IMG/VR virus record: IMGVR_UViG_3300032280_000642
Coordinates: 64,001-128,000 of that record
Source: a virus
Taxonomy: Duplodnaviria; Caudoviricetes
Reading direction: 5' to 3' (one strand)
Length of the DNA stretch: 64,000 bases
Within the stretch, counting starts at the first letter, position 1. Every line of letters begins with the position of its first letter. A model generated the notes under the pieces. It did not search any database and had not been told where the DNA came from. It worked only from the letters and a program-made list of their open reading frames with translations. The translations under genes were made by a program, and so were the position numbers. Below, piece after piece: positions 21,195 through 61,737 of the stretch.

Positions 21195-21803
21195 ATGAAA
21201 AGATTATTATTATTTCCATTTGTATTTCTTTATAACACCATAAAGAAAAATATTTTAAAAACTATTTGGATAGCACTTGCTATTATCGGATTTCATTTTT
21301 CACAGGGTTACAGTGAAGATGTTATTGAATCAAAAACTGCAACTCATGTTATAAAAACTGGTAAAAACTACATTTACTTTTTTGACGCAGGAGATAATCG
21401 TTATTCAACAATGGTTTTTGATGGGCCACTAAAGAATAATACTTATGTTTATAAAGATACTCAAGGTGAATATATTTGGTTACAAGCATTAGGTTGGGTA
21501 TCACTTATTGTTTTAGTAATTTGTTTTATTGTAGGTATCTCTGGTGATGATACTGCTGCTTGGGAATTTGATGAATGTTTTGAAAAATCATTATCTTTTT
21601 TAATTGATTGTGAATTTGAGGATAATAAGTTTTATTATTTTGCACTTGGTAGATTAATTCGAAAAAGTGATAGACAAGTAAGTGACCATTATAAAAATAT
21701 GGCAAACGAGTTAAATATTCATAGTTTTAGTGATATATTAAATTGTCCTAAGTTTATGACAAGATCACAAAGAAGAGGTAAGTTATTAGATGAATTAGTA
21801 TAA
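21195..21803 (+). CDS. Two-TM membrane protein with C-terminal RRGKLLDELV motif
   Basis: Two hydrophobic segments; TATATTTG at 21150-21157 upstream. Confidence 0.65.
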   Translation: MKRLLLFPFVFLYNTIKKNILKTIWIALAIIGFHFSQGYSEDVIESKTATHVIKTGKNYIYFFDAGDNRYSTMVFDGPLKNNTYVYKDTQGEYIWLQALGWVSLIVLVICFIVGISGDDTAAWEFDECFEKSLSFLIDCEFEDNKFYYFALGRLIRKSDRQVSDHYKNMANELNIHSFSDILNCPKFMTRSQRRGKLLDELV

Positions 21804-21827
21804 AAAAGTCCCAATTGGGACTTTTTT
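21802..21827. terminator. Bidirectional terminator, perfect 26-bp palindrome
   Basis: AAAAAAGTCCCAATTGGGACTTTTTT. Confidence 0.8.
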
Positions 21828-22290
21828 ATTTATTGTAGTTTTTCAAAAGATCAACTAATCTATTTAATGTTTCATCATCTAGTGAATACCAACCTTCATC
21901 ATTTGTTATATCTTTAATATCTTTACCAAGTTGTTCTTTATCAACTCCATCTTCACAAAGCCAATGGTATAATTCAACACACTCAGTTGCTAAATCAAAT
22001 TGATTGTATCCAGTAGCCTCATCTACACTATTAGTTTCTTCTTCTTTTAAATCTCTTAAATCAGATACTTGACTAGGTTTTCCCTTTTTTCTCTTTCTTT
22101 TGATTGGCTCTCCCGAACCTAATCCAAATCCAATGTCACCTGAGCCTGAAGTTCCTGGCACACCTGGTAGTGGACCAACTTGTGCGGCGACAACCGGTCC
22201 CATTCCTGCAGTATTTGAAGCATTCACAGTAGCAGTTCCACCACCTTCTCCATCTTCAAAAAACTTTTGATACTTTTTTAAATATTTCAT
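21826..22290 (-). CDS. Hypothetical protein with MKYLKKYQKFFED leader (start revised from 22332)
   Basis: TAATATATA-TACT-ATG at 22290; Gly-rich segment follows the leader. Confidence 0.7.
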   Translation of the reverse strand: MKYLKKYQKFFEDGEGGGTATVNASNTAGMGPVVAAQVGPLPGVPGTSGSGDIGFGLGSGEPIKRKRKKGKPSQVSDLRDLKEEETNSVDEATGYNQFDLATECVELYHWLCEDGVDKEQLGKDIKDITNDEGWYSLDDETLNRLVDLLKNYNK

Positions 22291-22326
22291 AGTATATATA
22301 TTAAATAAAAAAACTACATTTGTGTC

Positions 22327-22677
22327 ATGCAATTAAAAATTAATAGATTATCTTATCAAAAGTTATGTGTACATAACACCGTTGAAATCAAGTGTGGTGA
22401 AAAGCACATTGGTTATTATGATATTAGTACTACTTATAAAATAATGGAAGATAATTTCTTACAAATGTTATATTCTGATAGATTTATTACAAAACTTAGT
22501 AATATTTACGGAATTAAGAAAAAATATATTCAAATGAAATTAAAAAATTCAGATGATATAACCCTTGAAAACACTAACTATCCCAACAGTAAGATAGTTT
22601 TTGAGATAGAGTTTAATGATCCTATTTGGTTCATAAAGTACAATAGAGATATGTTAATCAAGCATTTACTTAATTAA
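22327..22677 (+). CDS. Hypothetical protein with C-terminal NRDMLIKHLLN motif
   Basis: TACATTTG at 22315-22322, 4 nt before the ATG. Confidence 0.65.
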   Translation: MQLKINRLSYQKLCVHNTVEIKCGEKHIGYYDISTTYKIMEDNFLQMLYSDRFITKLSNIYGIKKKYIQMKLKNSDDITLENTNYPNSKIVFEIEFNDPIWFIKYNRDMLIKHLLN

Positions 22678-22730
22678 CAGAAAAAAGTTACAATATTCTT
22701 TTAATATATAAAAGAAAAATATTGTAAATT

Positions 22731-23543
22731 ATGTTATTAAAAGTAGGTTCAAAGGGAGACGATGTTAAGAAACTCCAAGAGAAATTAGGTACTACGGCTG
22801 ATGGAGATTTCGGACCAGGTACAGAGAAATTAGTAAAAGAATGGCAATCCGCAAATGGTTTAACAGCTGACGGACTTGTTGGTGATGGAACTTGGACAAA
22901 AATGTTTGGTTCGGCACCAGTTGCAGTACCGGTTACATCAGGAACTTTAAAGTTAGAAAAATTAAAAGGACACATTCCTGATGCAGTAATTGCACAAATT
23001 CCAGATACTGCTGCAAAATTTGGTATTACTACAAATTTAAGATTAGCTCACTTTTTATCACAATGTGGCCATGAGTCAGGTGGTTTCAAAGCAGTTTCAG
23101 AAAACTTAAACTATTCTGCAGATGGATTAGTAAAAATATTTGGTAAATATTTTAATGCTACTACTGCAGCAGGTTATGCAAGAAATCCAGAAAAAATTGC
23201 TTCTAAAGTTTATGCATCAAGAATGGGTAACGGTAACGAAGCTTCAAAAGAAGGTTTCAAATTTAGAGGTAGAGGTTATATTCAATTAACTGGTAAAGAA
23301 AACTATACAAAATTTGGTAAATTTATTGGTGAAGATATTGCTTCAAATCCAGATTTAGTTGCAACTAAATATCCTTTAGCTTCTGCAGCATTCTTCTTTA
23401 ATTCTAATGGTCTTTGGGCTATTTGTGATAAAGGTGCTGATACGGCGACAGTTACTGCAGTAACTAAAAGAGTAAACGGAGGAGTCATTGGGCTAGATGA
23501 TCGTATTAAACACTTCAAAGAGTATTATAACTTATTGAAATAA
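22731..23543 (+). CDS. Endolysin: PG_binding_1 domain plus GH19 (chitinase-like) muramidase
   Basis: LKVGSKGDDVKKLQ..DGDFGPGTE..DGLVGDGTW; HFLSQCGHES, ENLNYS, FRGRGYIQLTG, VTKRVNGG. Confidence 0.9.
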   Translation: MLLKVGSKGDDVKKLQEKLGTTADGDFGPGTEKLVKEWQSANGLTADGLVGDGTWTKMFGSAPVAVPVTSGTLKLEKLKGHIPDAVIAQIPDTAAKFGITTNLRLAHFLSQCGHESGGFKAVSENLNYSADGLVKIFGKYFNATTAAGYARNPEKIASKVYASRMGNGNEASKEGFKFRGRGYIQLTGKENYTKFGKFIGEDIASNPDLVATKYPLASAAFFFNSNGLWAICDKGADTATVTAVTKRVNGGVIGLDDRIKHFKEYYNLLK

Positions 23544-23544
23544 T

Positions 23545-23574
23545 AAAAAAGTCGAGTAAATCTCGACTTTTTTT
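23545..23574. terminator. Bidirectional intrinsic terminator
   Basis: AAAAAAGTCGAG-TAAAT-CTCGACTTTTTTT. Confidence 0.8.
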
Positions 23575-24244
23575 ATTGTAATAACTTTTCTAGTTTAACA
23601 TTTCTCATAATAGATTCATAACCAACTAAAGAAATTTTAGATATTGTATCAACTATTTTATCCTTATTAAAGAATCCATTGTAAATAGTTACATTACTAT
23701 CACTACTATAAATAACTTTTACAAATAAATTAGGTTGTAATCTAACTATAAACTTTTCAATGAATTTATTATCTTCATCATGTATTTCAATATAAAATGA
23801 TTGTTCATACTCTGCACCATAATTAAATTGTGACTTAGTAAATCCTAGCTTATCCAGGTACTCAATAACTAAGTCCTGCTTTTTATAACGACAAGTAAGT
23901 TTAGTTTCAGTATCATAGTAAGAAAATCTTGAAGGAAATCCTTCAAAGAAGTCAATGCCACCAATATGATAAGTATCATTATATTTCTCCAACTCTTTAT
24001 CTAACTCACCTGTAAGATAAGCTAGTTTTTCTTCTCTTGAAGAAGAATTACTTATAATTTTTTTAGTTATCTCACTATCAAAGATAAAATAAGTTTGTCC
24101 TGTTAAAGAAGCAGTTCTTTCACAATTATCAATTAGTTCTTGTGAAATTTCACTCTTTTCGTAGGTAAAAAATGTTTCGTGCTTTTTTTCTTGTTCAGTA
24201 TCTTCATCAATAAATCCAATACCTTTACCTTGTATTATTTTCAT
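23573..24244 (-). CDS. Hypothetical protein with C-terminal MRNVKLEKLLQ motif (start revised to MKIIQG)
   Basis: AAAC-N17-TATAA directly upstream on the minus strand; the longer N-terminus overlaps the divergent gene. Confidence 0.65.
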   Translation of the reverse strand: MKIIQGKGIGFIDEDTEQEKKHETFFTYEKSEISQELIDNCERTASLTGQTYFIFDSEITKKIISNSSSREEKLAYLTGELDKELEKYNDTYHIGGIDFFEGFPSRFSYYDTETKLTCRYKKQDLVIEYLDKLGFTKSQFNYGAEYEQSFYIEIHDEDNKFIEKFIVRLQPNLFVKVIYSSDSNVTIYNGFFNKDKIVDTISKISLVGYESIMRNVKLEKLLQ

Positions 24245-24318
24245 AAACATTATATAAAAAATAAAAAAATGGTTTTTCAAATATAATATATAATTAAACA
24301 AAAAATATAGAAATATAA

Positions 24319-24660
24319 ATGAAACATTTAAAAACATTTGAATCTCATTCAATAAATGAAGAAGAAGGAAGAATATCACAGTTTTTTAGAGGTCACGATT
24401 CAAGTGAAGATAGAGATGCAAAAATGAGAGAATTCTTTAAAGAATTGGATTCTTATGAAGCGCAGGCTAAAAATGATACTGAGATAGTATTTAATAGACA
24501 ATCTTTAGAGAAAAAAGCTAAAGACAATAATTATAAAGGTCATTTAGAAGCTAGAGATTCTAGAAGTGGTGGTACTTATATCATATATGTTGATGGGGTA
24601 TCTGATTTTGGAAAACTTGCATCACTTGCGGCAAATAGAAGAGATAATCCACTAGGATAA
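24319..24660 (+). CDS. Hypothetical protein with MKHLKTFES leader
   Basis: TAATATATA upstream. Confidence 0.7.
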   Translation: MKHLKTFESHSINEEEGRISQFFRGHDSSEDRDAKMREFFKELDSYEAQAKNDTEIVFNRQSLEKKAKDNNYKGHLEARDSRSGGTYIIYVDGVSDFGKLASLAANRRDNPLG

Positions 24661-24698
24661 TAATTTTCTTATATTAACAATAAAAAAAATCTCGTCTA

Positions 24699-25228: not shown

Positions 25229-26755
25229 ATGCTGGTAGAAACACAATATTTAACAAATACAAAGAAATTAGTAGTAAGCTATGTAGATAAAACGGGCGAT
25301 ATAAAGCTAAAGTATTACAACTGGGACACCCCAATGAAATATGTATCTTGTGAAGATACAGATCCACAAAAACACGCTGAATTTAGATCTTGGGATGGTA
25401 AATCAGTAAAACAAATCGAAGTAAATCATCCTGATAGATACGCAATCTATGAGTTTTTAGATTCACTTCCAGAAAAAGAAAAAGAAGAAATCTTTGAGTT
25501 TAACTTACCAAAGATATTCTTTATAGATATTGAAACAGAAATCGTTGATGGTTTTCCAGAAGCCGCGGATATTAAAGATGCAGACGGAAATGTTATAAAA
25601 GAAGGTGCCGCAACTGCAGTACTTTCTATATCTATCGTTTATGACGATAAAATTATTCTTCTTGGTTTAAAAGATATGCCAGAAGATATGCAAAATAGAA
25701 TTTGTGATAACACAAATAAATACTTTGAGAAATTTGGTACAGAATATAAGTTTAGATATGTTAAATACGAATCTGAATTTGATATGCTTTACGCTTTCTT
25801 TGAGAAAATGATTCCAAAAATGCCAATTTTAACTGGTTGGAACTTCTTACAATATGACTGGTTATATTTAGTAAACAGAAGTAGAAAAATTTCTAAATGG
25901 GCTAACGGTAAAGAATGGAAAATAGACCCTGCCGTTTCATCACCTTTAAAAAGAATAAATAAAATGTGGGGTACTGATTATGAAGTTCCTGCACATAGAA
26001 TGATTTTTGATTACATGCAATTGTATGAAATCTGTGATACCTCTATAAAAGTAAAGGAATCTTCTTCTTTAGATTTCGTTGCCAATAAGTTAGTTGGAGT
26101 TGAGAAGATTAAGTATAACGGTTCATTACAAAAACTTTATGAAGACGATTTTGAAACATTTATGTATTATAACGCGGTCGATTCAGTACTTGTACAGAAA
26201 ATACACGAATCAAGAAACTATATTTCAATTATTTATGCGATCTCATCATTAGCAAAGATTAGAATTGTCGATGTAGTATCTCAAATGAATAACGCATTAG
26301 GTTCATTGGCGATTACCGAAGGAGTTTTAAGAAACAGATTTAGAGAAATGGACAACATTGTTCTTTTCAAAGATGAACGAGGTGATGGAGAATCAACAAT
26401 TGCTGGTGGTTGGGTTAAAGACCCTGTAGTAGGAATGAATAGATGGGTAGTTATTTATGACTTTGCATCACTATATCCTACAACTCAAAGACAATTCTTT
26501 ATTGCACCAGAGACATTTGTTGGAGTTCAAGACGAAAAGAACAAAGGTTTCTGTGATAATGGTAGACCGATTGACGAGGAAAAACACGTTGTTTGTGTAA
26601 ATGGTGTAGTTTTTGAGAAAAGACTATCACCAACACTTAGAATGTTAGAAGATGTTTATGCAGATAGAAAGTATAACAAAGGAATTATGATGAGAAAGAA
26701 AGATGAACTAAAAGAAGTTATGGATCAAATAAAAGAACTTGAAGAATCACTATAA
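25229..26755 (+). CDS. Family B DNA polymerase, N-terminal subunit (3'-5' exonuclease plus motif A) of a split enzyme
   Basis: DIETE (ExoI), GWNFLQYD (ExoII), YNAVD (ExoIII) and YDFASLYP (motif A); ends in the fingers helix with no KxxxNSxYG or DTDS. Confidence 0.85.
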   Translation: MLVETQYLTNTKKLVVSYVDKTGDIKLKYYNWDTPMKYVSCEDTDPQKHAEFRSWDGKSVKQIEVNHPDRYAIYEFLDSLPEKEKEEIFEFNLPKIFFIDIETEIVDGFPEAADIKDADGNVIKEGAATAVLSISIVYDDKIILLGLKDMPEDMQNRICDNTNKYFEKFGTEYKFRYVKYESEFDMLYAFFEKMIPKMPILTGWNFLQYDWLYLVNRSRKISKWANGKEWKIDPAVSSPLKRINKMWGTDYEVPAHRMIFDYMQLYEICDTSIKVKESSSLDFVANKLVGVEKIKYNGSLQKLYEDDFETFMYYNAVDSVLVQKIHESRNYISIIYAISSLAKIRIVDVVSQMNNALGSLAITEGVLRNRFREMDNIVLFKDERGDGESTIAGGWVKDPVVGMNRWVVIYDFASLYPTTQRQFFIAPETFVGVQDEKNKGFCDNGRPIDEEKHVVCVNGVVFEKRLSPTLRMLEDVYADRKYNKGIMMRKKDELKEVMDQIKELEESL

Positions 26756-26760
26756 ATAAT

Positions 26761-26788
26761 AAAACCTCTACAGAGAAGTAGAGGTTTT
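26761..26788. terminator. Bidirectional intrinsic terminator
   Basis: AAAACCTCTAC-AGAGAA-GTAGAGGTTTT. Confidence 0.8.
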
Positions 26789-26993
26789 ATTCATTTAGAG
26801 CGTCAATATGTTGAGTGAAATATTGTCCAAATTTTTCAATACAAAGGTCATAGATTTCAAACTCATTTGAAAGTCCTCTCTCCAATAATTCGTCAATAAA
26901 ATTAAAAATTTCATCTGCTGTTGTATAAACAGAAAATTCGTCGTGATGTAAGATATGTTCCATAGAAAAGTGGTAGTTTAATCTATATATCAT
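26787..26993 (-). CDS. Small acidic hypothetical protein (start possibly at MEHIL, 26963)
   Basis: Ends at the terminator; ATATATA lies in the first codons, suggesting a downstream start. Confidence 0.5.
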   Translation of the reverse strand: MIYRLNYHFSMEHILHHDEFSVYTTADEIFNFIDELLERGLSNEFEIYDLCIEKFGQYFTQHIDALNE

Positions 26994-38867: not shown

Positions 38868-39269
38868 ATGAGTATGATAATTAAAAATGCACAACTTACT
38901 AATGACACAATTTCAGCTTTAAATACTTTAATTGAATTAGATATTAAAGCAGGAGTTGCTTTTAGATTGACAAGAATAATTAAAGAATTATCTTCTATTG
39001 TTGAAGATAAATTAAAGATGGAGAAAAAAATCTTAGACAAGTGGGTTGAGAAGGATGAGGAAGGAAATCCAGTAATTCCTAAGGGACAAGATGGTAATCC
39101 AATTGAAGGTACTGTTAGTATCACAAATGTAGAAGAGTTCACAAAAGAAATGAGTGAATTGATGGAAATTGAAACAGAACTTCCATTTGATAAGATTGAA
39201 TTTGAAGATTTAGGTTTAACAACTGCTAAAGTTAAAGATTTAATAAAATTAGAATTCTTATTTAACTAA
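38868..39269 (+). CDS. Hypothetical helical protein
   Basis: 133-aa ORF with AAAC-N18-TATAA upstream and a terminator at 39274-39300. Confidence 0.7.
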   Translation: MSMIIKNAQLTNDTISALNTLIELDIKAGVAFRLTRIIKELSSIVEDKLKMEKKILDKWVEKDEEGNPVIPKGQDGNPIEGTVSITNVEEFTKEMSELMEIETELPFDKIEFEDLGLTTAKVKDLIKLEFLFN

Positions 39270-45707: not shown

Positions 45708-46805
45708 CTATATATTAAAAATAATATTCATCTTTTCATCTATATCTTCATCATATCTTATTATATGAAGAGTTATGTTATTATCGAAACAATAATTTAG
45801 CTTCAATTCATCTCTCTTTTTATGTATTTCAAAACCAATTTCATCTACATGCATTAGTTTATTAAATTTATAATGTTGTTCTCCATTAAACTCCAATAAA
45901 CATTTTATATTATTAGATTCATCAAATATGACAAAGTCAAAAAATAAGTTGTTTATATATTTTAAACCATTGAAAGAATATTGTGTACCATATTTTATTT
46001 TATAATTATCTAATATTTTAGAAATTTTTAACTCACCCCTTGATATATTACATTTCCTACACCCATATCCATTCAAATGTCTACTAGGTTTTTGACTAAA
46101 AAAACCATGTTCTAAACATTTTATCTTTACTGGTGTATTATAGAGTACATAATTAACAGAATCATAATTATATCTATCTCCGTGTAATTTTTTAGACATT
46201 TCTATAAAATCACCAGTACATAATCTTTTTTCTTCAAATACACACTTCATACAGGAACTTCCCTGTAAATGACTACTGGCCCTTTGTACAAAATCACCGT
46301 GTTTACTACATATAATAACAACTCTACTATTTGCATTTTTATAGACCACTTTATCATAACAATATTTATCATTATGAATTTCTTTTGATATTTTTATAAA
46401 ATCCGAATTACTGTAGTTATGTGTACCAGAACACTTAGAACAACCCTGACCATTCAAATGGTTATTTGGATTTTGAGTAAATTCACCGTGTAATTTACAT
46501 TTTATAATAATTTTAGTTCGACTATTTATGTAATTTATATCATCATAAATATATTTATTACCGTGTACTTTTATTGACTTCTCAATAAATTTATCCTTGG
46601 TCAATTTCATACCATCGTGATAACATTTTGCACAAGTCTGTCCTTTGTAATGCTCCTTTGGTGCTTGTTCAAATATACCATGTACCATACATTCTATTTT
46701 AACTTTAGTACTATTGTTTTTATAAACAACACTATCATAATTATATTTATTACCGTGTATTTCTTTAAATTTTTCTAAAAAATTATACCTATTTAATTTA
46801 TCCAT
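45708..46805 (-). CDS. Homing-endonuclease-like protein: four Zn-ribbon repeats plus Vsr/PD-(D/E)XK-like nuclease (start revised to MDKLNRY)
   Basis: Repeats F.E....HG.KY.Y..V.Y...KV.I.C..HG.F.Q....H..G..C.KC; C-terminal SRGE..FDF..LEFNGEQHY..IRY. Confidence 0.75.
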   Translation of the reverse strand: MDKLNRYNFLEKFKEIHGNKYNYDSVVYKNNSTKVKIECMVHGIFEQAPKEHYKGQTCAKCYHDGMKLTKDKFIEKSIKVHGNKYIYDDINYINSRTKIIIKCKLHGEFTQNPNNHLNGQGCSKCSGTHNYSNSDFIKISKEIHNDKYCYDKVVYKNANSRVVIICSKHGDFVQRASSHLQGSSCMKCVFEEKRLCTGDFIEMSKKLHGDRYNYDSVNYVLYNTPVKIKCLEHGFFSQKPSRHLNGYGCRKCNISRGELKISKILDNYKIKYGTQYSFNGLKYINNLFFDFVIFDESNNIKCLLEFNGEQHYKFNKLMHVDEIGFEIHKKRDELKLNYCFDNNITLHIIRYDEDIDEKMNIIFNI

Positions 46806-46897
46806 ATTTCTATATATTAAATTATGTAGATTAAATACACAAAATACCAAAATAATTTAAAAATATATAGTTAAATATAAAATTATAATCCGATAAA

Positions 46898-47218
46898 ATG
46901 AAAATAAGAAGATTTTTTGAAAGTGAAGAACAAATAGATATTTCTCCAGAGAGAATTGGTGAGATGATGAATGAACTAAAAGAGTTCATTGCAAATATTG
47001 AAGATAAATCAAAGATAGTAGATTCTCTTGGTACTGAACTAAGTAATTATAAAAATAACTCTACAAAAAGTAATGATCAAATAGATGATTCAATTGCCGC
47101 TTTACAAGTTATTAAAAAAGATTTAGATGATTGTATAGATAAATTAGATACAGTTGTAAGTAATTTAGACTCATATAATCAAGATGGTAGAAAATATTTA
47201 TACACCGAAAACAAATAA
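46898..47218 (+). CDS. Coiled-coil protein with MKIRRFFES leader
   Basis: Heptad-like pattern; ATATATA upstream. Confidence 0.7.
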   Translation: MKIRRFFESEEQIDISPERIGEMMNELKEFIANIEDKSKIVDSLGTELSNYKNNSTKSNDQIDDSIAALQVIKKDLDDCIDKLDTVVSNLDSYNQDGRKYLYTENK

Positions 47219-47238: not shown

Positions 47239-47376
47239 ATGTCATTTGCAGCGGGTTGGCCAGGAACTAACAATATAAATAATAATCAGTATAATACTGC
47301 TTGGAGAATGTGGTTAGGTTTAAGACCTTCACATAGAAAGAATAAAATCAAAAGATTATTTAATGTTAATAGGTAG
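47239..47376 (+). CDS. 45-aa peptide ending in HRKNKIKRLFN motif (not in ORF track)
   Basis: MSFAAGWPGTNNINNNQYNTAWRMWLGLRPSHRKNKIKRLFNVNR; AAAC-N17-TATAA 4 nt upstream. Confidence 0.55.
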   Translation: MSFAAGWPGTNNINNNQYNTAWRMWLGLRPSHRKNKIKRLFNVNR

Positions 47377-47599
47377 AAAAGGTAAAGAAACAACAGATCC
47401 AGGTTATATTTATGTACCTTATCTAATGGCACAAAGTATAACTACTACTATACAAAGTAAGAACTACTTTAGAAAAATTAAAATTAGAAGATTACTTGGT
47501 ATGCCTTCAGCAGAGAGTATCATAAAAAGTAGATATGCAACTAAAAAAGTAAATAATAATTTTTACACAACACAAGGTATAAAAAAACCACTCAATTGA
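47363..47599 (+). CDS. Mini-protein resembling the C-terminus of a gp23-type major capsid protein
   Basis: LIGRKG....PGYIYVPYLM ... KSRYATKKVNNNFY. Confidence 0.55.
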   Translation: MLIGRKGKETTDPGYIYVPYLMAQSITTTIQSKNYFRKIKIRRLLGMPSAESIIKSRYATKKVNNNFYTTQGIKKPLN

Positions 47600-48405: not shown

Positions 48406-50169
48406 ATGAAAAAATTTTCCGATTTTATAAAAGAAGAAATAGATTTAAGAGGTAACAGTGGAGTTCCTAGAGATTTCATGAGAAACTCTGAAGAAGAAGC
48501 TGAGAGAAATTTAGGTATTAGACCAGATGATGAAAGTCAGATGAGAGAGGTTTGGCCAGATTTTCAAAGAAAAATGGGACAATCTATGCAAATGATGATG
48601 CAGGGCCCAGATGGTAGACCATTAGGTAGACCACAGATGCAAGAAAGAGTAGAAGCTTTACAAAACCTAGCAAAAGATCTTATCATGGATGAGTATGGTG
48701 ATATACTAGAAGCTTCTTCAAAACCTGTTGAACTTGACATTAAATTAGTAATGATGGGTCAAGTTAATCAAAATGTTCCTGATTTAAGAGATGTTCCATC
48801 AACACCAGAAAGAAATCCACGTGAAGATGAAACTCATGAAAGTGAAGACGAAGAAGATCAAGATAGTGAATGTGCTGATGGTTCTTGTTCAAATGATGAT
48901 GAAGACAATGATGAAACTACTGAAGATGATCAACCTACTGGTAGTGTTTTAAATGCTGCAATGAAGAAGAAAATTCTTAATATGTTAACACAAGGTGAAG
49001 GTAAAGCAACTAAAGATATTATTAAAGCTTCTCCTATTGTTGAAGATGGTTTACAAAGAATATTTGGAAATAATGGAGAAAGAATCCTAAGAATATGGAG
49101 TGAAATGTCTGATATTGCTGATAAAATGGACTGGATTATACCAATACAAGATAAGGCTAGAATGATGAGTGGTAACTCAGGTGGTATGGCAGGTGCGACT
49201 GATGTAACTTGGGAAAGTTTAAATAACAGTACTTTCTCAATTCAATTACTAAAAGAGAATCAAGATTATAGAAAAATAACTATTAAAGCGGTTGGTGTTG
49301 ACTTTCCGATGTTAATTCACGAAGCAGTAAAAGGTATTTACTTACTAATTCAATCAGCAGCAATTAAGAAAGATAAAGAATTTGCCAAGAAAGTAAAAGC
49401 GGCAACTTCTTCATTTTTGGATGAAGCACAAGATTTTAGATACGGTGTAACTGCACAAGCAATGTTTAATGATTTTATTAATGCTTGTAAAGATTCTCAA
49501 AAGTATAGACAAATGAGAACAAGAGTATTTAGATTATTGGCAAATGATAAAGAAAGATTAACTGCAAGAGCCAATGCCGAACAAAATGAAGAATTAAAAG
49601 ATTTACTTAAAAAAGAAGCCAAACTTGCCTTAACTGATGAAAAGTTCTTGGAAGTATTTAATAGTTTACTTTCTGTTTTTGATAAAGTTAATGAAGGTGG
49701 TCAACAACAAATAACAGTTTTTGGATTTAACCGTGGTGGTGGTAGAATAGCATTTGTTATTAATCAAGAAAGATTTAATCAATCTGTAGCAAAAACTGTA
49801 ATTGAAGGTTTAATCAAACATATTGTAGATACAGAAGAAGCTTATGAACAAGCAATAAAAGAGTGGGAATTAGAACAAAAATTAGGACCAGCTACTAACT
49901 ATGATGAACCTGATACAGAAGATGATGAAGATCCACTAGGATTAGGTTTAACAAAACAAGAAGAACCAGTAGATGACGGTGTTTATTCTGATGAAGATCT
50001 TTCAAAAATGAGAAAAAGAGATATTCAAGAACTTATGGATGCTGCTTTAGATGCCGGTGATTACGATGAAGTTAGAAGACTTAGTGGATTTCTTAAAGAA
50101 GGTGCAGAAATCTATTTAAGAGAGTTAGAAAGAATAAATGAAAGCCAACACACAAGAAGACAAAAATAA
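48406..50169 (+). CDS. Large hypothetical virion-internal-type protein (MKKFSDFIKEE leader)
   Basis: Acidic linkers, FPMLIHEAVKG segment, C-terminal MDAALDAGDYDEV (IDEAL-like). Confidence 0.7.
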   Translation: MKKFSDFIKEEIDLRGNSGVPRDFMRNSEEEAERNLGIRPDDESQMREVWPDFQRKMGQSMQMMMQGPDGRPLGRPQMQERVEALQNLAKDLIMDEYGDILEASSKPVELDIKLVMMGQVNQNVPDLRDVPSTPERNPREDETHESEDEEDQDSECADGSCSNDDEDNDETTEDDQPTGSVLNAAMKKKILNMLTQGEGKATKDIIKASPIVEDGLQRIFGNNGERILRIWSEMSDIADKMDWIIPIQDKARMMSGNSGGMAGATDVTWESLNNSTFSIQLLKENQDYRKITIKAVGVDFPMLIHEAVKGIYLLIQSAAIKKDKEFAKKVKAATSSFLDEAQDFRYGVTAQAMFNDFINACKDSQKYRQMRTRVFRLLANDKERLTARANAEQNEELKDLLKKEAKLALTDEKFLEVFNSLLSVFDKVNEGGQQQITVFGFNRGGGRIAFVINQERFNQSVAKTVIEGLIKHIVDTEEAYEQAIKEWELEQKLGPATNYDEPDTEDDEDPLGLGLTKQEEPVDDGVYSDEDLSKMRKRDIQELMDAALDAGDYDEVRRLSGFLKEGAEIYLRELERINESQHTRRQK

Positions 50170-53073: not shown

Positions 53074-53526
53074 ATGACAGGTAAGAAATTAAATCATTCA
53101 GATGCACTTAAATTTATTTTCGCAGGTAATTCAACATTTACTGTTGTTAATACCAATACTGATAATAGATTTACATTTAGTTTAAAATTATCAAAGAACA
53201 GTAACTTGTTTTTTGTTAAAGTTTTGTCAGGTCCAGAAACTTATACCTACATCGGAACCTGTGCAAACGGTTATTTTAAACATTCAAAGAAATCTGTTAT
53301 ATCAGCAGATGCACAATCTGTAAAAGTTTTCAATTATATTCTTAATAAATTAAGAACTAATACACTTCAAGATTTTGTTGAGATATGGCACCAGGGTAAA
53401 TGTGGGAAGTGTGGTAAAGCTTTAACCGTACCATCTAGTATAGATAATGGTTTAGGACCAAGTTGTCTTAAATCACTCTCTAAACAAGAAAAAAGAGATA
53501 AGTTTTTAGAATTAATACTTTCATAA
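53074..53526 (+). CDS. DUF6011-type Zn-ribbon protein with C-terminal KRDKFLELILS motif
   Basis: CGKCGKALTVPSSIDNGLGPSC. Confidence 0.7.
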   Translation: MTGKKLNHSDALKFIFAGNSTFTVVNTNTDNRFTFSLKLSKNSNLFFVKVLSGPETYTYIGTCANGYFKHSKKSVISADAQSVKVFNYILNKLRTNTLQDFVEIWHQGKCGKCGKALTVPSSIDNGLGPSCLKSLSKQEKRDKFLELILS

Positions 53527-53527
53527 T

Positions 53528-54073
53528 ATGACACTATCCGCACTTAGAGCATTAATCTCATTATCAACACTTTTATTAATGGGATTTTATTTTTTTCTAA
53601 ATAGAAAAAATAAAGACCGAAAGAACATTTCTTGGGATGTTAAACAAGGAGTAAGATGTTATTCTTGTAAAGAAGAGATTTTTGATGAAAGTAACATTCA
53701 AACCGAAATTCAAAGAGAATGGCAAAAACTTAATAAACTACGTAGTATATTTGATAGAATTAATATAAATCCAAAAAGTGAAGATTTACATATGTGTACC
53801 TCTTGTAATAGAGATAATCAAATAGAAGGATTGATAAATAAAAGACTTATTTCAGTAAACTCAATTAAAAAGTATTTATATTCACGTAAGTTTAATAGAA
53901 TACTTTGGAGTTATACTATTTTAATGATCACTACATTAACACTAGATATTTTAGATTATACTACAAATAAGGACTCATTAAGAATTTTCTTTTATATCTA
54001 TAATTTGACTATTTATTGTTATTGGGCAATAATCATTTATAAAAATAAACTGGAATATATAATAGACAAATAA
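53528..54073 (+). CDS. Membrane protein with CxxC pairs
   Basis: N-terminal TM, CYSC and CTSC, two C-terminal TMs; internal NRDNQIEGLI motif. Confidence 0.65.
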   Translation: MTLSALRALISLSTLLLMGFYFFLNRKNKDRKNISWDVKQGVRCYSCKEEIFDESNIQTEIQREWQKLNKLRSIFDRININPKSEDLHMCTSCNRDNQIEGLINKRLISVNSIKKYLYSRKFNRILWSYTILMITTLTLDILDYTTNKDSLRIFFYIYNLTIYCYWAIIIYKNKLEYIIDK

Positions 54074-54105
54074 AAAACCCTCAACTATTACTTTGAGGGT
54101 TTTTT
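54072..54105. terminator. Bidirectional intrinsic terminator
   Basis: AAAAAACCCTCAA-CTATTACT-TTGAGGGTTTTTT. Confidence 0.8.
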
Positions 54106-54183
54106 AGGGTCAACCGGTTAAGTCGAACATCCACCACCTTATTTTGAGAAATAAGGAAAATATAAACTATAAACTACTACTAT

Positions 54184-54357
54184 TTACTCAGCTTTAGCTT
54201 CATTAACCGATGCCGCTCTATAAGGAGTTACCAATTTTTTGATTTCACCTAATGCTTTACGAGCATCTGCATCAGATTTTTTAGTTGTTTTGTTGTGGTT
54301 TGTATCAAATTGTTCCCACAAAGTTTTTAATTGGTCAAAAATTTCTTGTTTTGTCAT
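54184..54357 (-). CDS. Histone H1-like (Hc1-family) small protein, 57 aa (not in ORF track)
   Basis: MTKQEIFDQLKTLWEQFDTNHNKTTKKSDADARKALGEIKKLVTPYRAASVNEAKAE; the ARK...E..KL...YR..S pattern matches Bacteroidota Hc1-like proteins. Confidence 0.65.
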   Translation of the reverse strand: MTKQEIFDQLKTLWEQFDTNHNKTTKKSDADARKALGEIKKLVTPYRAASVNEAKAE

Positions 54358-54410
54358 AATATTTATTTATTTTTTTGTTTTAAACCCACTTATTTAAGGG
54401 GTTTTAATTT

Positions 54411-55643
54411 TTATCCGAAAATATCATCTGCATCTGCAGAATCTGTAAATCCGTTATCATCTGTTGTATCATCTTCATCACCGATAATACTATTAAATTC
54501 TTTTTCTACTTCATCGATTTCATCTAACGACTTAAATCTGAAATAATCATTTACGATTGGTGCCATTTTCTCTAACACTTCTTGTGTAAATACTTCTTGT
54601 GTAAATAGTTGTTTAGTTGTTACCGATTTGTTTAAGTGATCAACATACCATCTAATTCCACCTGGAATGAATTTCATTTCACCTGTTGATTTATCAACTT
54701 CCATTTTACCTTTTGCAATACCAATTTTATCAAAATACTCTGGTCTACAGAAAGCATCTAATCCAGTGTAAGGATTCATACCGTGTGCAAATGAAATATC
54801 AAATCTAATTTTCTTAGGTTTTGCCATACGATTTTTCATTGTTTTAAATAAAACTGAAATACCACTTGAACCTAAATCCATATCATCTTCTTCACCAGTT
54901 TTTAATTTTGATTTTGACATCATACCAATAACTGATGCAGAATATAAAAGACCATTACCACCCTTGAGTTTTTCCACGGAAAACATGTCTAAAGTCATAT
55001 AAGTGTGATTACATACAATCATAGGTATATCTAAGAAACCTAAATCTGTATTGATACTTCTAAACATAGAACCAAGAGCTTTAGCTTTAGTCATATCTTG
55101 TTTAATGTTACCTGCTAATAAATCTTCTTTTTCTTTGTTAGATGCCATTTGGCCCAATGAGTCTAATACAATCATTAGTTTAGGTAATTCAAAACCTGCC
55201 ATTTTTTGTTCTTTCAAATCATCTAATAATTGAGTCAATAACATATTTACATCTTCAACTTTGTTAGATCTAATCAATCTGAACTTTTCTAATGAGTTAT
55301 CAATTCCAAATTTTGGAATATCTTCTAAGTCAATTGCTTGTTCTGTATCAATGTAAATAACAGAGTATCCTGCTTTTTGTGCATGTTTAGCACAAGAGTA
55401 AGCTACAAATGATTTACCTGCACCAGATTCACCCGCAAATGCAGTGATTCTATTATTAGCAACTCCACCACCAAGTAATTTTCCTGATAATGCAGCATCT
55501 AATAAATAAACACCAGTTGTAATAAATTGTTTTTCTTTAATTTCTTTCTCAATTTGAATTGGCACTGACTTTGCGATATTATCTAATATCGAACCAATCT
55601 TACTAAACTCAAACTTCTTTCCTTCTTTAACTTGTTTCGCCAT
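54411..55643 (-). CDS. uvsX: RecA-like recombinase (UvsX type)
   Basis: TTGVYLLDAALSG, AGESGAGKS, YIDTE, VLDSLG, NHTY, GGNGLLYSAS and KNR. Confidence 0.88.
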   Translation of the reverse strand: MAKQVKEGKKFEFSKIGSILDNIAKSVPIQIEKEIKEKQFITTGVYLLDAALSGKLLGGGVANNRITAFAGESGAGKSFVAYSCAKHAQKAGYSVIYIDTEQAIDLEDIPKFGIDNSLEKFRLIRSNKVEDVNMLLTQLLDDLKEQKMAGFELPKLMIVLDSLGQMASNKEKEDLLAGNIKQDMTKAKALGSMFRSINTDLGFLDIPMIVCNHTYMTLDMFSVEKLKGGNGLLYSASVIGMMSKSKLKTGEEDDMDLGSSGISVLFKTMKNRMAKPKKIRFDISFAHGMNPYTGLDAFCRPEYFDKIGIAKGKMEVDKSTGEMKFIPGGIRWYVDHLNKSVTTKQLFTQEVFTQEVLEKMAPIVNDYFRFKSLDEIDEVEKEFNSIIGDEDDTTDDNGFTDSADADDIFG

Positions 55644-57000: not shown

Positions 57001-58062
57001 TTAAATTACTTTTTTATATTCTCTAATATATTTATAAACTACTCCTTTTTTCAATTTTAATTTATTTATTATATCAATTGGTGAAATATTATTACAATAC
57101 ATTTTTATCACATTATTTCTAACATCATCAAATTTTTCACTTCTACTTAATCTATTCTCATCTATATTATTCCATTTTCTAGATAATATTGGTAAGTTAA
57201 GTTTTATACATTCTTTTTTAATGTTTTTCAATAATATATTATCAGATATTGTCAGTAGTGAATATCCATCGTTACCAACTTTTGAAAATACTTTATCTTT
57301 ATCATAGTTAAAATAATTATATAGAAAATTTTCAATGAATATCAAATTATTTAACCAATTTTTATGAAGGTGTATTCTTAGATTACAATCTTGTCTTTTA
57401 TAAATTTTATGAATACTACCATCACCATCTATAAATCCAATTATTAGTGAAAATAATAATTCTTTATCAAAAGAATATGTATTTAGATCCATAGGATCAT
57501 AGGTTTTATTATTCTTGATATTAAATTTTTCACATAATCGAATACAAATTTCTCTATTTTGTAAAGAAGTCGAACACATTGAATCCTTTTCAATCATATC
57601 AGAACATCCTAAATAGTCAACAAATTTCTGTAAATGATTTCTATCTTTATTAGATAATGATATTTTTATCCTTTCACTGTTACTAATATGACCATCTGCT
57701 AAAATAAATCCAATCCAATAAAAACTATCCAATTCATCATACATCAATATATTCATATTAGAATTTCTTTTGAAATCATGACCTCTAAAAATATCAATTC
57801 TATTAGATTTTAATTTAATAGAATCCCAACTTCTATTAGGTAATAGCTCGAGTAATTCATCTTTACTCATATTCACATAATTATCCACTATAATAGAAAT
57901 TTCATAACTGGACCACTTCTCACATTTTTTTATTTTATTTGGTACTATATTATATCTATATTTTCTTATACTATCCCAATTTCTATTAGGTAATAGTCTA
58001 AGTAATTCATCTCTATCATCATATTTTTTTATTATTTCTACTTCTTCATTAGTCCATTTCAT
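57001..58062 (-). CDS. LAGLIDADG homing endonuclease with N-terminal Myb/SANT-like repeats
   Basis: YWIGFILADG and IIGFIDGDG; two KW...E..II....LLPNR.WDSI repeats. Confidence 0.8.
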   Translation of the reverse strand: MKWTNEEVEIIKKYDDRDELLRLLPNRNWDSIRKYRYNIVPNKIKKCEKWSSYEISIIVDNYVNMSKDELLELLPNRSWDSIKLKSNRIDIFRGHDFKRNSNMNILMYDELDSFYWIGFILADGHISNSERIKISLSNKDRNHLQKFVDYLGCSDMIEKDSMCSTSLQNREICIRLCEKFNIKNNKTYDPMDLNTYSFDKELLFSLIIGFIDGDGSIHKIYKRQDCNLRIHLHKNWLNNLIFIENFLYNYFNYDKDKVFSKVGNDGYSLLTISDNILLKNIKKECIKLNLPILSRKWNNIDENRLSRSEKFDDVRNNVIKMYCNNISPIDIINKLKLKKGVVYKYIREYKKVI

Positions 58063-58165: not shown

Positions 58166-58729
58166 ATGAATATTTGGATAACTTCTGATACTCACTATAA
58201 TCACAAGAACATCGCGGGAAAAGAGGTTTCTCGTTGGACGGACGGGTTCAGAAAGTTTGCAAGCGTTCAACAAATGAACGAATCTTTAATTGCTAACATC
58301 AACAAGTATGTTAAAGAGGACGATACTTTGTATCACCTTGGAGACTTTGCGTTTGGTGATGCTAAAACAATCAGAGAGTTTAGAAACTCTTTAATTTGTA
58401 AAAATGTACATTTAATTTTAGGAAACCACGATGAAGAAATCGAGGATTCTTTAGAATTACAAGAACTTTTTACAAGTGTAGGATATGTTTACACAGGATA
58501 TATTGGAAAACAAAAGTTCCATTTATCTCACTACTCACACAGAGTTTGGCCAAAATCTCACAGAGGTACAATACACCTTTATGGACATTCACACGGAAGT
58601 ATTCCTGATTATGGAAAATCTATGGATGTTGGTGTAGATACTCACAAAGATTTTAGACCTTATCACATTAACGAGATTTACTCTATAATGAGTAAAAGAG
58701 ACGTTCACAAAATTGATCATCATGGTTAA
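58166..58729 (+). CDS. Calcineurin-like metallophosphoesterase
   Basis: SDTHY, HLGDF, GNHD, SHY, GHSH and DVGVD. Confidence 0.85.
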   Translation: MNIWITSDTHYNHKNIAGKEVSRWTDGFRKFASVQQMNESLIANINKYVKEDDTLYHLGDFAFGDAKTIREFRNSLICKNVHLILGNHDEEIEDSLELQELFTSVGYVYTGYIGKQKFHLSHYSHRVWPKSHRGTIHLYGHSHGSIPDYGKSMDVGVDTHKDFRPYHINEIYSIMSKRDVHKIDHHG

Positions 58730-58895
58730 TTTGAAGTCTGAGTTAGCTTGGTTAAAAATACAACTAAACTCACATTATGGTACAGAGAAGATCTCTACCT
58801 CTGGAACAATTAAACGAGTTTCAGTGATTAAGAAAAAACTTAAAAAAATAGAACAAAGAAAAAATAAAATACTACATTTAACAAATGGACGATAG
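58720..58895 (+). CDS. Small basic protein ending QRKNKILHL (start approximate)
   Basis: Overlaps both neighbours in the operon; the likely ATG is at 58722. Confidence 0.5.
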
Positions 58896-59202
58896 ATTTG
58901 AAATGGGAGACCAAGTTGTTTGTATAAAACAATATGATACATTAAAACCAGGTAGTCACTACACCATAAAAGGTTGTGGTGACTTATCCTGGAATATGGC
59001 TACGGATAAAAAAGGTTATGGTTTCTGTGTTGAAGATGATAGTTTTGCTTATGATATACCAAATTGGTGGAACTTACCATATGATCAAAGAATAAAGTTT
59101 CATTACTTTACATTAGAAGAAATGAATGAGTATTTTATAACAAAATCAGAGGATTATAAATCTTATGTAAGAGATAATAAATTAAAAGAATTAGGAATAT
59201 GA
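58885..59202 (+). CDS. Hypothetical protein ending VRDNKLKELGI
   Basis: SH3-like N-terminus FEMGDQVVCIK. Confidence 0.7.
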   Translation: MDDRFEMGDQVVCIKQYDTLKPGSHYTIKGCGDLSWNMATDKKGYGFCVEDDSFAYDIPNWWNLPYDQRIKFHYFTLEEMNEYFITKSEDYKSYVRDNKLKELGI

Positions 59203-59618
59203 TAGATAATTATAATTTTAAACCTGCATTATATTTTGATTGTACTTATGGAACTAACATACATACTTATTATAAATTTCCATTTGGATTAAACGCAGAT
59301 GAAGTTTACAATATACTAACACCATGTTGGAAAGAAAGTTTAGAAAAAACAAATCTAATTGAATCCTTAAATGATAGTCATTTCCCATTTGATATTAAAA
59401 ATCTTACTTTTGAACAAAAGTATCATATATTACAAGGAATGGCAGCAGGACTTCCAATAGATAATATTATTTATTTTTCCATTGATAGAATTTTAGCTTA
59501 TATGAATAATGATATAAAATCTGAAATGAAATACTTCTCATTAAAGACACAATGGGTAGTATCTCCAAAAACTTGGAATAGAATAAAAGAACAATTAAAA
59601 ATTGAAGAATTAGTATGA
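59199..59618 (+). CDS. Hypothetical protein
   Basis: ATGA-coupled on both sides. Confidence 0.7.
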   Translation: MIDNYNFKPALYFDCTYGTNIHTYYKFPFGLNADEVYNILTPCWKESLEKTNLIESLNDSHFPFDIKNLTFEQKYHILQGMAAGLPIDNIIYFSIDRILAYMNNDIKSEMKYFSLKTQWVVSPKTWNRIKEQLKIEELV

Positions 59619-60235
59619 TAGATATATTTGGAAATTTACCAATTGACTTAACGAAAATCACTTGTCATTCTGGTGGTGCAATTGGTAGTGATACTTATTT
59701 TGAAACCATCGGAGCTAACTATGGAGTAAAAACAAAAGCATATTCTTACAAGACAAAGTATCATACTACTGAAAACAAAGTAGAAATCAGTGATGATGAT
59801 TATGAAGAAGGAGTAAAAGCTATTCAATTAGCCAATCGTTCTTTAAATAGATATGGTATTCATAGATTTATGAATTTACTTGCAAGAAATTGGGCCCAAG
59901 TAAAGTATTCTGATGAAGTATTTGCGATAGGAACTATCGTACAACCTGGTAAAAAAGGTTCAAAAGGATTTTATAATAAGTCACAATTTGAAGTTGTTGA
60001 TGGCGGCACGGGCTACGCGGTTCAAATGGCGATAGATAATAGAAAAACAGTTTATGTTTTCGATCAAGATAAAGACAAATGGTTTAGATGGTCTTATACA
60101 TCTTTATCATTTAGAGAGTTGAAAGGTACTCCAGTTATTACAAGTGAAAACTTTGCAGGAATTGGAACAAGAGAGATAAAACCAAATGGTATTTTGGCAA
60201 TACAAGAAGTTTATAATTTAACATTTAGTAAATAA
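59615..60235 (+). CDS. SLOG-superfamily protein (circularly permuted YpsA-like)
   Basis: HSGGAIGSD, LLARN, GGTGYAV and FAGIGTR. Confidence 0.6.
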   Translation: MIDIFGNLPIDLTKITCHSGGAIGSDTYFETIGANYGVKTKAYSYKTKYHTTENKVEISDDDYEEGVKAIQLANRSLNRYGIHRFMNLLARNWAQVKYSDEVFAIGTIVQPGKKGSKGFYNKSQFEVVDGGTGYAVQMAIDNRKTVYVFDQDKDKWFRWSYTSLSFRELKGTPVITSENFAGIGTREIKPNGILAIQEVYNLTFSK

Positions 60236-60594
60236 TGGAGAGAGTAATAGTTGAAATGACATCCTTTATATTTGAAGATGGTAATACCTACTATTTTCAA
60301 ATCTTTAATAGACCGAGCACTAATGATTATCAAGATTTATATGTTTATGAAAAATCATCATATAAAACCTGGTATGGTGTCACAAAATATAAGTTTAATC
60401 AATTAAATGAACGTCCAGAATTGGTAGATTATAGACTAAGTACAAGTGAGATAAAACAAAGTATTAAAAAGATACTAACTTGTACAAAAGCTTCATATCT
60501 AATAAAAGATTGGGATGGTTTTGTTGGTAATATACCAGATCAAGTTAAAAAAGCACTAACAAGAGATAACAAGTTAAAAGATTTAGGAATATAA
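60235..60594 (+). CDS. Hypothetical protein ending TRDNKLKDLGI
   Basis: TAATG-coupled. Confidence 0.7.
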   Translation: MERVIVEMTSFIFEDGNTYYFQIFNRPSTNDYQDLYVYEKSSYKTWYGVTKYKFNQLNERPELVDYRLSTSEIKQSIKKILTCTKASYLIKDWDGFVGNIPDQVKKALTRDNKLKDLGI

Positions 60595-61025
60595 TGAAGA
60601 AATCTGCAGGAGTAATAATAATTTTAAATAACACTAAAATACTTCTTTCACACGCAACAGGTGCAAAGTGGACATCAACTTTCTCATTCCCTAAAGGTGG
60701 AATTGAGAAAGACGAAAAGAAGAAAGATGCTGCAATTAGAGAATTAGCAGAAGAAACTTCTATTGTTATTACTAAAGATCAAATTAGTAATCCAGATGAT
60801 GCTATTATTGTAAATTACATTGATAAATCTGGAGTAAATTATAAAAGACTATATTTATATACCGTTTATATAGAAGACATTTCTGAGATTGGTTTAGAAT
60901 CTGAAATTGTACCTATTGAAAATCTTCAAGCAGATGAATTAGATTGGTGTGGTTTTCTAACAAAAGAAGAAGCCAAAGACAAAATCTTTACTAGAGTTGA
61001 ACATTTGTTAGATCTAATCAACTAA
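60594..61025 (+). CDS. Nudix hydrolase
   Basis: Nudix box PKGGIEKDEKKKDAAIRELAEETS. Confidence 0.9.
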   Translation: MKKSAGVIIILNNTKILLSHATGAKWTSTFSFPKGGIEKDEKKKDAAIRELAEETSIVITKDQISNPDDAIIVNYIDKSGVNYKRLYLYTVYIEDISEIGLESEIVPIENLQADELDWCGFLTKEEAKDKIFTRVEHLLDLIN

Positions 61026-61061
61026 TATATACATTACTTCTATAATAAGAAAAAATTTTTT

Positions 61062-61391
61062 ATGGAAGAGATAAATTTAGACAATCCAATTTTTGCATTC
61101 TATCTAAACATTGATGGTATGTCTCGTCAGTCGGCTCAACAATCATTAGCGGAATTGAAAAGAGAGGTTACTTATACTAATATAACTTCTTGGATATTAC
61201 CTAGTAATGAAACTAAAGTAGATTGTGTTTATCCAGGTAAAAGTATGTATAATACACCTGAGCTAGAAAATCTGATAAAAGAAATAAATGAAAGAATTGA
61301 CTTATTAGCAGATTCTGAATCATTTGAAGATTTTAAGATAAATGTAAGAGATTGGAGAATAGGAAAGTTATTTAATGAGACCAATAAATAA
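61062..61391 (+). CDS. Hypothetical protein ending VRDWRIGKLF
   Basis: CAAC-N18-TATAA upstream. Confidence 0.65.
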   Translation: MEEINLDNPIFAFYLNIDGMSRQSAQQSLAELKREVTYTNITSWILPSNETKVDCVYPGKSMYNTPELENLIKEINERIDLLADSESFEDFKINVRDWRIGKLFNETNK

Positions 61392-61737
61392 AACATACGA
61401 GGGTAAACTTTTTAGATCGGAAATAAACATGGAAGAAACCATGTGGTGGGACTACTATGATTATTATGATTCTTACTATGATCAATTTGATGATTATGGT
61501 TATATCGATAAAGATTTAGAAAAAGAAATTTTAACCGAGGTTCTTTTAGGTCCCTGTACCAGAAAAAGAAAGTGGGCTTATTATGCTTATCGTATAGTAG
61601 ATATGGAATCATTCTATCCAAAGGCAGTTTTAAGAGAAAGAAAAATAAATGATTTACTAGGACTTCCAGGTGGAACTGGAAGAATTGAGAGACCAACACT
61701 TGGTGATTTAATTAAAAAAGATGTATATAAAAAATAA
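61375..61737 (+). CDS. Tyr/Asp-rich hypothetical protein with LRERKINDLLG motif
   Basis: Overlaps its operon neighbours. Confidence 0.6.
   Translation: MRPINKTYEGKLFRSEINMEETMWWDYYDYYDSYYDQFDDYGYIDKDLEKEILTEVLLGPCTRKRKWAYYAYRIVDMESFYPKAVLRERKINDLLGLPGGTGRIERPTLGDLIKKDVYKK

Follow-up and report, generated by a model that had tools for sequence, protein, structure and literature searches.

A portable C-terminal tag on unrelated small proteins of a megaphage clade: a possible docking or sorting peptide

Introduction

Why should small phage proteins that share no other similarity end in the same short peptide? The question is raised by a 64,000-nucleotide stretch of DNA, the window analysed here, which corresponds to bases 64001-128000 of the IMG/VR virus contig G000 (150,390 bp). 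An earlier note on this DNA had listed twelve peptides of related sequence at or near the ends of unrelated genes and had proposed that they form a short amphipathic helix acting as a shared docking tag, degron or localisation signal. G000 has a G+C content of ~29% and a CheckV completeness of 25%, and is about one quarter of a ~0.6-Mb megaphage. In the phage collection, the complete records nearest to it are those of LR745206.1 (634,780 bp) and LR756502.1 (642,428 bp), freshwater/subsurface megaphages treated in PMC9723777. The tag itself is apparently undescribed; string and topic searches of the literature found no description of the motif.

A C-terminal tag on one protein in seven

The tag follows the pattern R-x-x-K-[I/L]-x-x-[I/L]-[L/G/F], after which the chain runs on for 0-4 residues to the stop codon, and it occurs on about a dozen unrelated small proteins of G000. 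Among 168 greedily called open reading frames (ORFs) of the contig, compared with 200 shuffles per protein, the strict pattern was observed 11 times against 3.7 expected overall and 6 times against 0.24 in the last 20 residues, which bears out the C-terminal enrichment over shuffles that the earlier note had proposed as a check. A refined pattern, R[DEKN].[KRQ][LI]..[LI][LGF], which was chosen after the data had been seen, gave 12 matches against 0.34 overall and 8 against 0.02 in the last 20 residues. A hidden Markov model (HMM) of the tag, run on the six-frame translation of G000, returned 12 matches of at least 7.6 bits that stand clear of noise, ten of them ending 0-4 residues before a stop codon, and recovered one carrier (48702-48908 of G000) absent from the greedy ORF set; a model trained on LR745206 tags only gave 8 matches of at least 8 bits, compared with 0.85 in shuffles.

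The scale of the phenomenon becomes apparent in the whole genome of LR745206 (~635 kb), in which 993 ORFs were called. The last 20 residues hold the strict pattern in 114 proteins against 1.5 expected and a loose pattern in 131 against 2.7, and the count of tagged proteins rises to 145 once valine is allowed at position 8. The tag thus marks about 13-15% of the proteome, or about one protein in seven; enrichment in a related phage, which the earlier note had suggested examining, lies far above expectation, and the extent of tagging had been underestimated. Beyond this genome, a degenerate DNA pattern for RDNKLK[D/E]LGI found nine matches in IMG/VR, all nine directly before a stop codon and in at least five unrelated proteins, and a word and profile search yielded 67 proteins from seven unrelated families that end in RDNKLK[D/E]LGI or near variants (..LGIE, ..DLLG, ..KSILKRIID). 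A second pattern, R/S-D-x-K-I-D-D-I-[L/F], had 45 matches, of which 39 lie no more than six residues from the stop codon, and added a dozen further families, all on AT-rich contigs.

The logo of the 145 LR745206 tags, in which the search pattern itself imposes the arginine at position 1, has D, E or N at position 2, lysine in 87% of tags at position 4, I or L at position 5, I, L or V at position 8 and L, G, I or F at position 9, with the chain usually stopping one or two residues later. Upstream, a hydrophobic residue (I/L) at position -1 is preceded by an S/T-x-x-E helix cap. The short helix assumed by the earlier note is also predicted by AlphaFold2, which models residues 87-102 of the family of gene 58885 as one helix starting at an S-E-D cap (predicted local distance difference test score, pLDDT, about 70).

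Selection on the peptide and restriction to one clade

Several lines of evidence indicate that the peptide is conserved and travels independently of the protein that carries it. Across the IMG/VR matches the synonymous codons of the tag differ at nearly every position, including AGA versus CGA for arginine, and because synonymous codons vary, selection must act on the peptide and not on the DNA. The tag is retained in all seven orthologue pairs between G000 and LR745206 (28-49% identity, with the weak case 21195 among them) while its variable positions change, and in three families it is 90-95% pairwise identical where the protein bodies are 65-79% identical, in a sample that is biased because it was gathered via tag words. 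With the tag removed, the 145 carrier bodies of LR745206 fall into 144 BLAST components. The earlier description of unrelated carriers with a portable tag is therefore upheld by the dissimilarity of the carriers, the codon variation and the seven orthologue pairs. A DNA- or RNA-level element, such as the ribosome-binding site of the next gene or a recombination cassette, was ruled out, as synonymous positions are free and just a subset of copies adjoins the start codon of the following gene.

The tag is also confined phylogenetically. Tenacibaculum phage pT24 (28.7% G+C, 317 ORFs) has no C-terminal match against 0.6-1.1 expected, and a 160-kb sample of Lak-C1 (25.7% G+C) has a single one, without enrichment. 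Since these genomes are equally AT-rich and lack the tag, it is clade-specific and not an effect of composition; together with the shuffles, they rule out an artefact of composition or of helix propensity. A coarse, insensitive scan found no tags in LR756501 and LR756500, with LR756504 borderline.

Carriers and their gene context

The carriers in LR745206 are small, with a median length of 105 amino acids (aa); the tag is found on 24-26% of proteins of 60-150 aa and on none of the 146 proteins of 250-500 aa. A Pfam search of 80 of the largest carriers found almost no domain, and searches of Pfam, PHROGs and the ESM Atlas for a carrier function gave nothing useful. Tagged genes are clustered in this genome, forming 46 adjacent pairs compared with 21 expected. 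At 375169-376409, 503-511 kb and 597-606 kb of LR745206, arrays of 5-10 successive small genes each end in a tag, several with ..LGI. Mini-ORFs of 35-75 aa with a basic RK.KIK.[IL]F version of the tag often overlap both neighbours by 4-23 bases.

The carriers had been described as early or middle proteins, and they prove to be non-late, on the understanding that the late class rests on a motif proxy and not on expression data. A late-promoter-like TATATATA box lies shortly ahead of the start in 6% of tagged genes, compared with 19% of other genes and 36% of those that bear an N-terminal leader (p = 6e-5 for the depletion before tagged genes and p = 8e-9 for the other difference). Tag and leader had been called mutually exclusive, and they are nearly so: by a crude leader regular expression, 4 of 145 tagged proteins carry the leader, compared with 90 of 730 untagged ones (p = 2e-4). 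The TAnnTTTG and AAC-N17-TATAA promoters that the earlier note assigned to these genes are not enriched upstream of them.

All twelve peptides of the earlier note are present in the genes to which they were attributed, where the entry 24244 denotes the minus-strand gene 23573-24379 and the entry 58722 the ORF 58713-58895. Its regular expression, R..K[LI]..[LI], describes seven of the twelve; the remaining five have R, Q, L or F at position 4. Eight instances are strong, six of them C-terminal and two internal; both internal tags run into G-[LM]-P and recur in relatives (Table 1). The other four are weak, comprising three degenerate variants with a hydrophobic position 4 and an internal NRDNQIEGLI in 53528 that is probably due to chance. 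Four carriers had been missed, all outside the window, at 6376-6513, 26160-26861, 48702-48908 and 54611-55066 of G000.

Table 1. Instances of the tag in the window (positions are those of the window; G001 and G002 are relatives)
Tag	Position	Strand	Class	Carrier and location	Homologues and remarks
RDNKLKELGI	59170..59199	+	strong, C-terminal	105-aa protein 58885-59202; extreme C-terminus	tag kept in >20 database proteins of the family; LR745206 orthologue ends ..LRDRKINSIIND
RDNKLKDLGI	60562..60591	+	strong, C-terminal	119-aa protein 60235-60594; extreme C-terminus	homologues end ..LGI, ..LGIE/K/R/S, ..LGL or ..LGV
RDWRIGKLF	61347..61373	+	strong, C-terminal	109-aa protein 61062-61391; 5 residues before stop	kept by orthologues in G001/G002 and LR745206 (..VRNWRLGELLKNGDN)
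RKNKILHL (basic)	58857..58880	+	strong, C-terminal	60-aa mini-ORF 58713-58895; near end	ORF overlaps both neighbour genes; G001 copy ..KRKNKILHLTNG
RKNKIKRLF (basic)	47335..47361	+	strong, C-terminal	45-aa mini-ORF 47239-47376; 4 residues before stop	conserved in G001/G002
RNVKLEKLLQ	23576..23605	-	strong, C-terminal	268-aa protein 23573-24379; C-terminus	LR745206 orthologue (44% identity) ends ..IRDEKIKVILNEKED
RERKINDLLG	61633..61662	+	strong, internal	120-aa protein 61375-61737; followed by LPGG and a 24-residue extension	conserved in G001/G002
RKIKIRRLLG	47471..47500	+	strong, internal	78-aa protein 47363-47599; followed by MPS and 32 residues	weak Pfam match to Gp23 (major capsid protein; profile positions 303-347), suggestive of a capsid-protein fragment, with the tag inserted after it; conserved in G001/G002
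R-GKLLDELV	21774..21800	+	degenerate variant	202-aa membrane-like protein 21195-21803; C-terminus	LR745206 orthologue (33% identity) ends ..KRENFLNKIGIK
RDMLIKHLLN	22645..22674	+	degenerate candidate	22327-22677; C-terminus	fits only the loosest pattern; low HMM score
RDKFLELILS	53494..53523	+	degenerate candidate	53074-53526; appended after a DUF6011 domain	PHROG and Pfam profiles stop at residue 135, so that the last 15 residues lie beyond the family core

A proposed docking or sorting peptide

For this motif, a bias in position, selection at the protein level, modular use, confinement to one clade and a non-late gene context are documented above. We favour, with a probability of about 0.5, the reading that it is a short linear motif which serves as a portable C-terminal docking or sorting peptide for one shared receptor. 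In molecular terms, the tag would be a capped amphipathic helix of ~15 residues in which an invariant arginine and a near-invariant lysine precede three aliphatic residues spaced i, i+3, i+4, with the chain ending 0-4 residues on. In one clade of ~0.6-Mb megaphages, more than 100 small non-late orphans that are otherwise unrelated would have acquired or retained it, and it would deliver or tether these carriers to a shared receptor that is either encoded by the clade or specific to its host. Its role would accordingly be that of an address or recruitment signal rather than a catalytic or structural part of each carrier. That a single receptor reads the tag is something we infer, and several points weigh against it: Pfam searches of these genomes for PDZ, TPR and MIT domains found no candidate receptor, the phage collection includes no cultured member of the tag-bearing clade, and a receptor present in few copies would be swamped if about 15% of the proteome carried its tag. 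Moreover, the basic (RK.KIK.LF) and acidic (RDKKIDDIFDD) subclasses may have different partners, and the sequences would also suit a role other than docking, for example in stabilising small proteins.

A bolder and decidedly more tentative version of the docking reading holds that the tag is a proteome-scale sorting signal, by which about one seventh of the proteins, nearly all of them early orphans, are routed to a single clade-specific receptor, hub or compartment. Short terminal addresses on unrelated cargo that are read by one receptor or shell are familiar from the C-terminal targeting peptides of encapsulins, the encapsulation helices of microcompartments and the peroxisomal PTS1. Like these, the tag is a terminal address on unrelated proteins and not part of their fold; unlike them, its carriers are non-late orphans and not enzymes, and it has no sequence similarity to these peptides. 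The Dot/Icm effectors of Legionella make up about a tenth of the proteome and are unrelated, fast-evolving small proteins that reach one machine by means of a loose C-terminal signal. Here the likeness lies in a loosely defined C-terminal signal shared by many unrelated small proteins; the Dot/Icm signal, however, is longer and far less conserved and belongs to a bacterial secretion system rather than a phage, for which no translocation machinery is known.

Among phages, the capsid-targeting sequence of T4, an N-terminal leader of internal proteins, is likewise a portable terminal tag on unrelated proteins, and a T4-like N-terminal leader was matched in this phage genome by the crude regular expression. 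The two differ in that they occupy opposite termini and mark different gene classes, leader genes here carrying the late-promoter-like box six times more often. Cargo loading would require late, capsid-timed carriers, and the late-promoter-like box precedes only 6% of tagged genes; the depletion of both late box and leader argues against a role of the tag in capsid loading.

What could read the tag?

Two candidate receptors can be named, the PCNA-like sliding clamp of the phage and an AAA+/Clp system of phage or host origin, and the tests have weakened both. The clamp was tested because T4 gp43, gp55 and gp33 share a common, interchangeable C-terminal clamp-binding epitope (PMC2988020), which may serve by analogy as a precedent for docking; the tag would then be a clade-specific T4-type or PIP-like motif tethering small proteins to DNA-loaded clamps, an explanation that we regard as rather unlikely. 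Both motifs are short, follow a variable linker and, within one phage, form the very end of proteins that are unrelated to each other. The core [IL]-x-x-[IL]-[LF] at the C-terminal end of the tag has the hydrophobic spacing of T4 gp43 (..SLDFLFG) and gp55 (..SLDFLYEAND), and the i, i+3, i+4 triad is present at or near the C-terminus in the logo of the 145 tags; the T4 motif is, however, acidic and aromatic (SLDFLF/Y) and found on three proteins, whereas the tag is anchored by Arg/Lys, aliphatic and carried by about 15% of the proteome. A clamp is encoded, at 42677-43459 of G000 (outside the window), by a 260-aa protein with no Pfam match that is homologous to a weak phrog_223 match in LR745206; its AlphaFold2 model (pLDDT 95.8) has Foldseek matches to PCNA, the beta clamp and T4 gp45, and its family has 215 representatives in a library of 1.8 billion proteins. 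A gp44-like clamp loader is encoded as well, but members of this clamp family are also present in the tagless pT24 and in further relatives for which the coarse scan returned no tags. The C-terminal piece of the split DNA polymerase, conserved in four genomes, ends ..KRLSVIMDIFNGF, loosely fits the spacing of the tag (R...[IV]..IF) and resembles the RB69/T4 epitope; the polymerase tail nevertheless falls below noise with the tag HMM, and its end, ..RLSVIMDIFNGF, fits the loosest pattern only. Tagged mini-ORFs hold conserved positions beside the gp55 homologue and about 1.5 kb from the polymerase gene, and another adjoins a gene that would be NusG-like judging from its N-terminal sequence. Yet the gp55 homologue itself ends ..IRLISINSANDGNGLHSI, with the canonical tag on a separate overlapping ORF that is missing in LR756504, LR756501 and LR756500, and gp55 homologues have a conserved C-end of their own, which in PAU and pT24 is the T4-like ..RFDMIFNESV. 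Furthermore, LR745206 has no tag on its NAD-ligase or its FEN/RNase H, and the replisome would face competition from about 145 clients.

A degron or adaptor-binding signal, which would hand early proteins to a phage or host AAA+/ClpP system for clearance at the late switch, would suit an exposed C-terminal tag on small non-late proteins, and G000 does encode a true ClpP (227 bits), while LR745206 and LR756502 have two or three ClpP genes and a double-AAA protein of ~700 aa. We consider it unlikely, given that ClpP and a double-AAA protein are also found in Lak-C1, whose 160-kb sample shows no tag enrichment, a result that also bears on the protease adaptor suggested as partner in the earlier note, that ClpP is absent from LR756501, and that no ClpX-type gene lies within the 150 kb of G000. 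The gene directly downstream of ClpP is tagged in G000, G001, G002 and LR745206, but this adjacency is weak evidence because 15-26% of small genes are tagged in any case, and a capped amphipathic helix with invariant Arg/Lys is, to our knowledge, unlike the C-terminal degrons of ClpX, Lon or FtsH. It is also conceivable, if quite improbable, that no receptor exists and that the tag is an intrinsic C-terminal cap which stabilises or solubilises very small proteins, or a by-product of gene birth, for instance through a shared 3' recombination cassette. Such an origin would agree with carriers that are nearly all orphans of 35-250 aa, with their size bias and with their arrangement in arrays; a generic cap, however, would not need an invariant arginine and 87% lysine at fixed spacing, pT24 and Lak match the clade in base composition and are likewise rich in small orphans, yet lack the tag, and the free use of AGA or CGA for arginine rules out conservation at the DNA level. 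Finally, that the tag targets proteins to membranes as an amphipathic helix of the MinD/FtsA type is very improbable. The basic tags of mini-ORFs (..RKNKIKRLFNVNR, ..RKKRIKNLFDF), presumably with RKNKIKRLF of 47239 among them, resemble the C-terminal membrane-targeting helix of MinD, but a strongly amphipathic basic helix with a broad hydrophobic face is found in these RK.KIK.LF mini-ORFs only; the majority of tags have D, E or N at positions 2, 6, 7 and 10, most have no more than three aliphatic residues, a net acidic character is common (..RDKKIDDIFDDID, ..RDNKLKELGI), and the mean body charge of the carriers is slightly negative. The membrane, which the earlier note had listed among possible partners, is thus disfavoured, as most tags are too polar or acidic to act as an anchor.

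The tagged ORF beside gp55 merits separate description. At 6036-6513 of G000 (outside the window), the 124-aa homologue of gp55, the late sigma factor, is overlapped by a conserved ORF of 45-55 aa in the +1 frame, with its start (ATGATGG) inside ..NDG.. and the tag at its end, an arrangement conserved in five genomes. Its product is either a separate adaptor-like mini-protein or the result of a programmed frameshift. The idea that it supplies a missing clamp-binding tail of gp55 was initially favoured and then downgraded in view of the C-end of gp55 itself, the epitope in PAU and pT24 and the absence of the ORF from three megaphages; as gp55 has its own conserved C-end, the tagged ORF is an extra gene. 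The ClpP gene (53946-54605 of G000, also outside the window) adjoins a UvsW-like helicase gene and does not lie in a head module. A prohead protease with its tagged neighbour as scaffold was ruled out on these grounds, ClpP being genuine (227 bits) and the next gene encoding the UvsW-like helicase.

The phage and its other genes

The genes for replication and late transcription on G000 are T4-like and include a split family-B DNA polymerase, a DnaB-like helicase, UvsW-like and RecA/UvsX-like proteins and a truncated gp44-like clamp loader, as well as a gp55 homologue (phrog_234, E = 7e-8) that falls into the same family as T4 gp55. The phage belongs to the wider lineage with T4-like replication and late transcription, as defined by its gp55 homologue, clamp, gp44-like loader, UvsW and UvsX; through the gp55 homologue, its more distant relatives are other megaphages of more than 460 kb, Lak phages and the cultured jumbo phages pT24, PTm1, MA9V-1 and PAU.

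The two parts of the polymerase, an exonuclease/N-terminal part and a palm-thumb part, are encoded by distant genes, at 25229-26755 of the window and at 45719-47173 of G000. In the second piece an in-frame TAA directly follows a motif-B-like ..LNGSYA; it is present in G000 only, while G001 and LR745206 read through at this position. At the very start of the contig (G000 1-516, outside the window), the truncated gp44-like ORF continues in frame into NuoH-like sequence (..RWTLPRFRYDQLMKLGW..), and the first ~260 bases have the appearance of captured host DNA or of a chimeric end created in assembly. Also outside the window, at 3497-4918 of G000, a 473-aa PAS/histidine-kinase-like gene lies between conserved genes and has no counterpart at this locus in the close relative G001. 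Within the window lie three separate genes. That at 57001-58062 (-) encodes a LAGLIDADG homing endonuclease, that at 54411-55643 (-) a RecA/UvsX-like recombinase whose acidic tail ends ..ADADDIFG, and that at 38868-39269 (+) a 133-aa protein (phrog_1401) whose end, ..LIKLEFLFN, is similar to the T4 clamp epitope LDFLF.

Outlook

Megaphage genomes consist mostly of orphan genes that offer no functional handle, and the tag gathers more than 100 of them into one functional class. It predicts a single receptor that could be found with one peptide, and it provides a sequence rule for mining related genomes, while as a portable recruitment peptide it could also serve engineering. If the sliding clamp were the receptor, it would serve the phage as a general-purpose docking platform; with a protease or compartment in that role, the tag would point to a new level of control over the timing or location of events during infection by giant phages. 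Should the sorting-signal reading be true, phages would possess an analogue of PTS1 or of the signals that direct effector translocation, and sequence alone would suffice to define which early effectors a ~0.6-Mb phage deploys.

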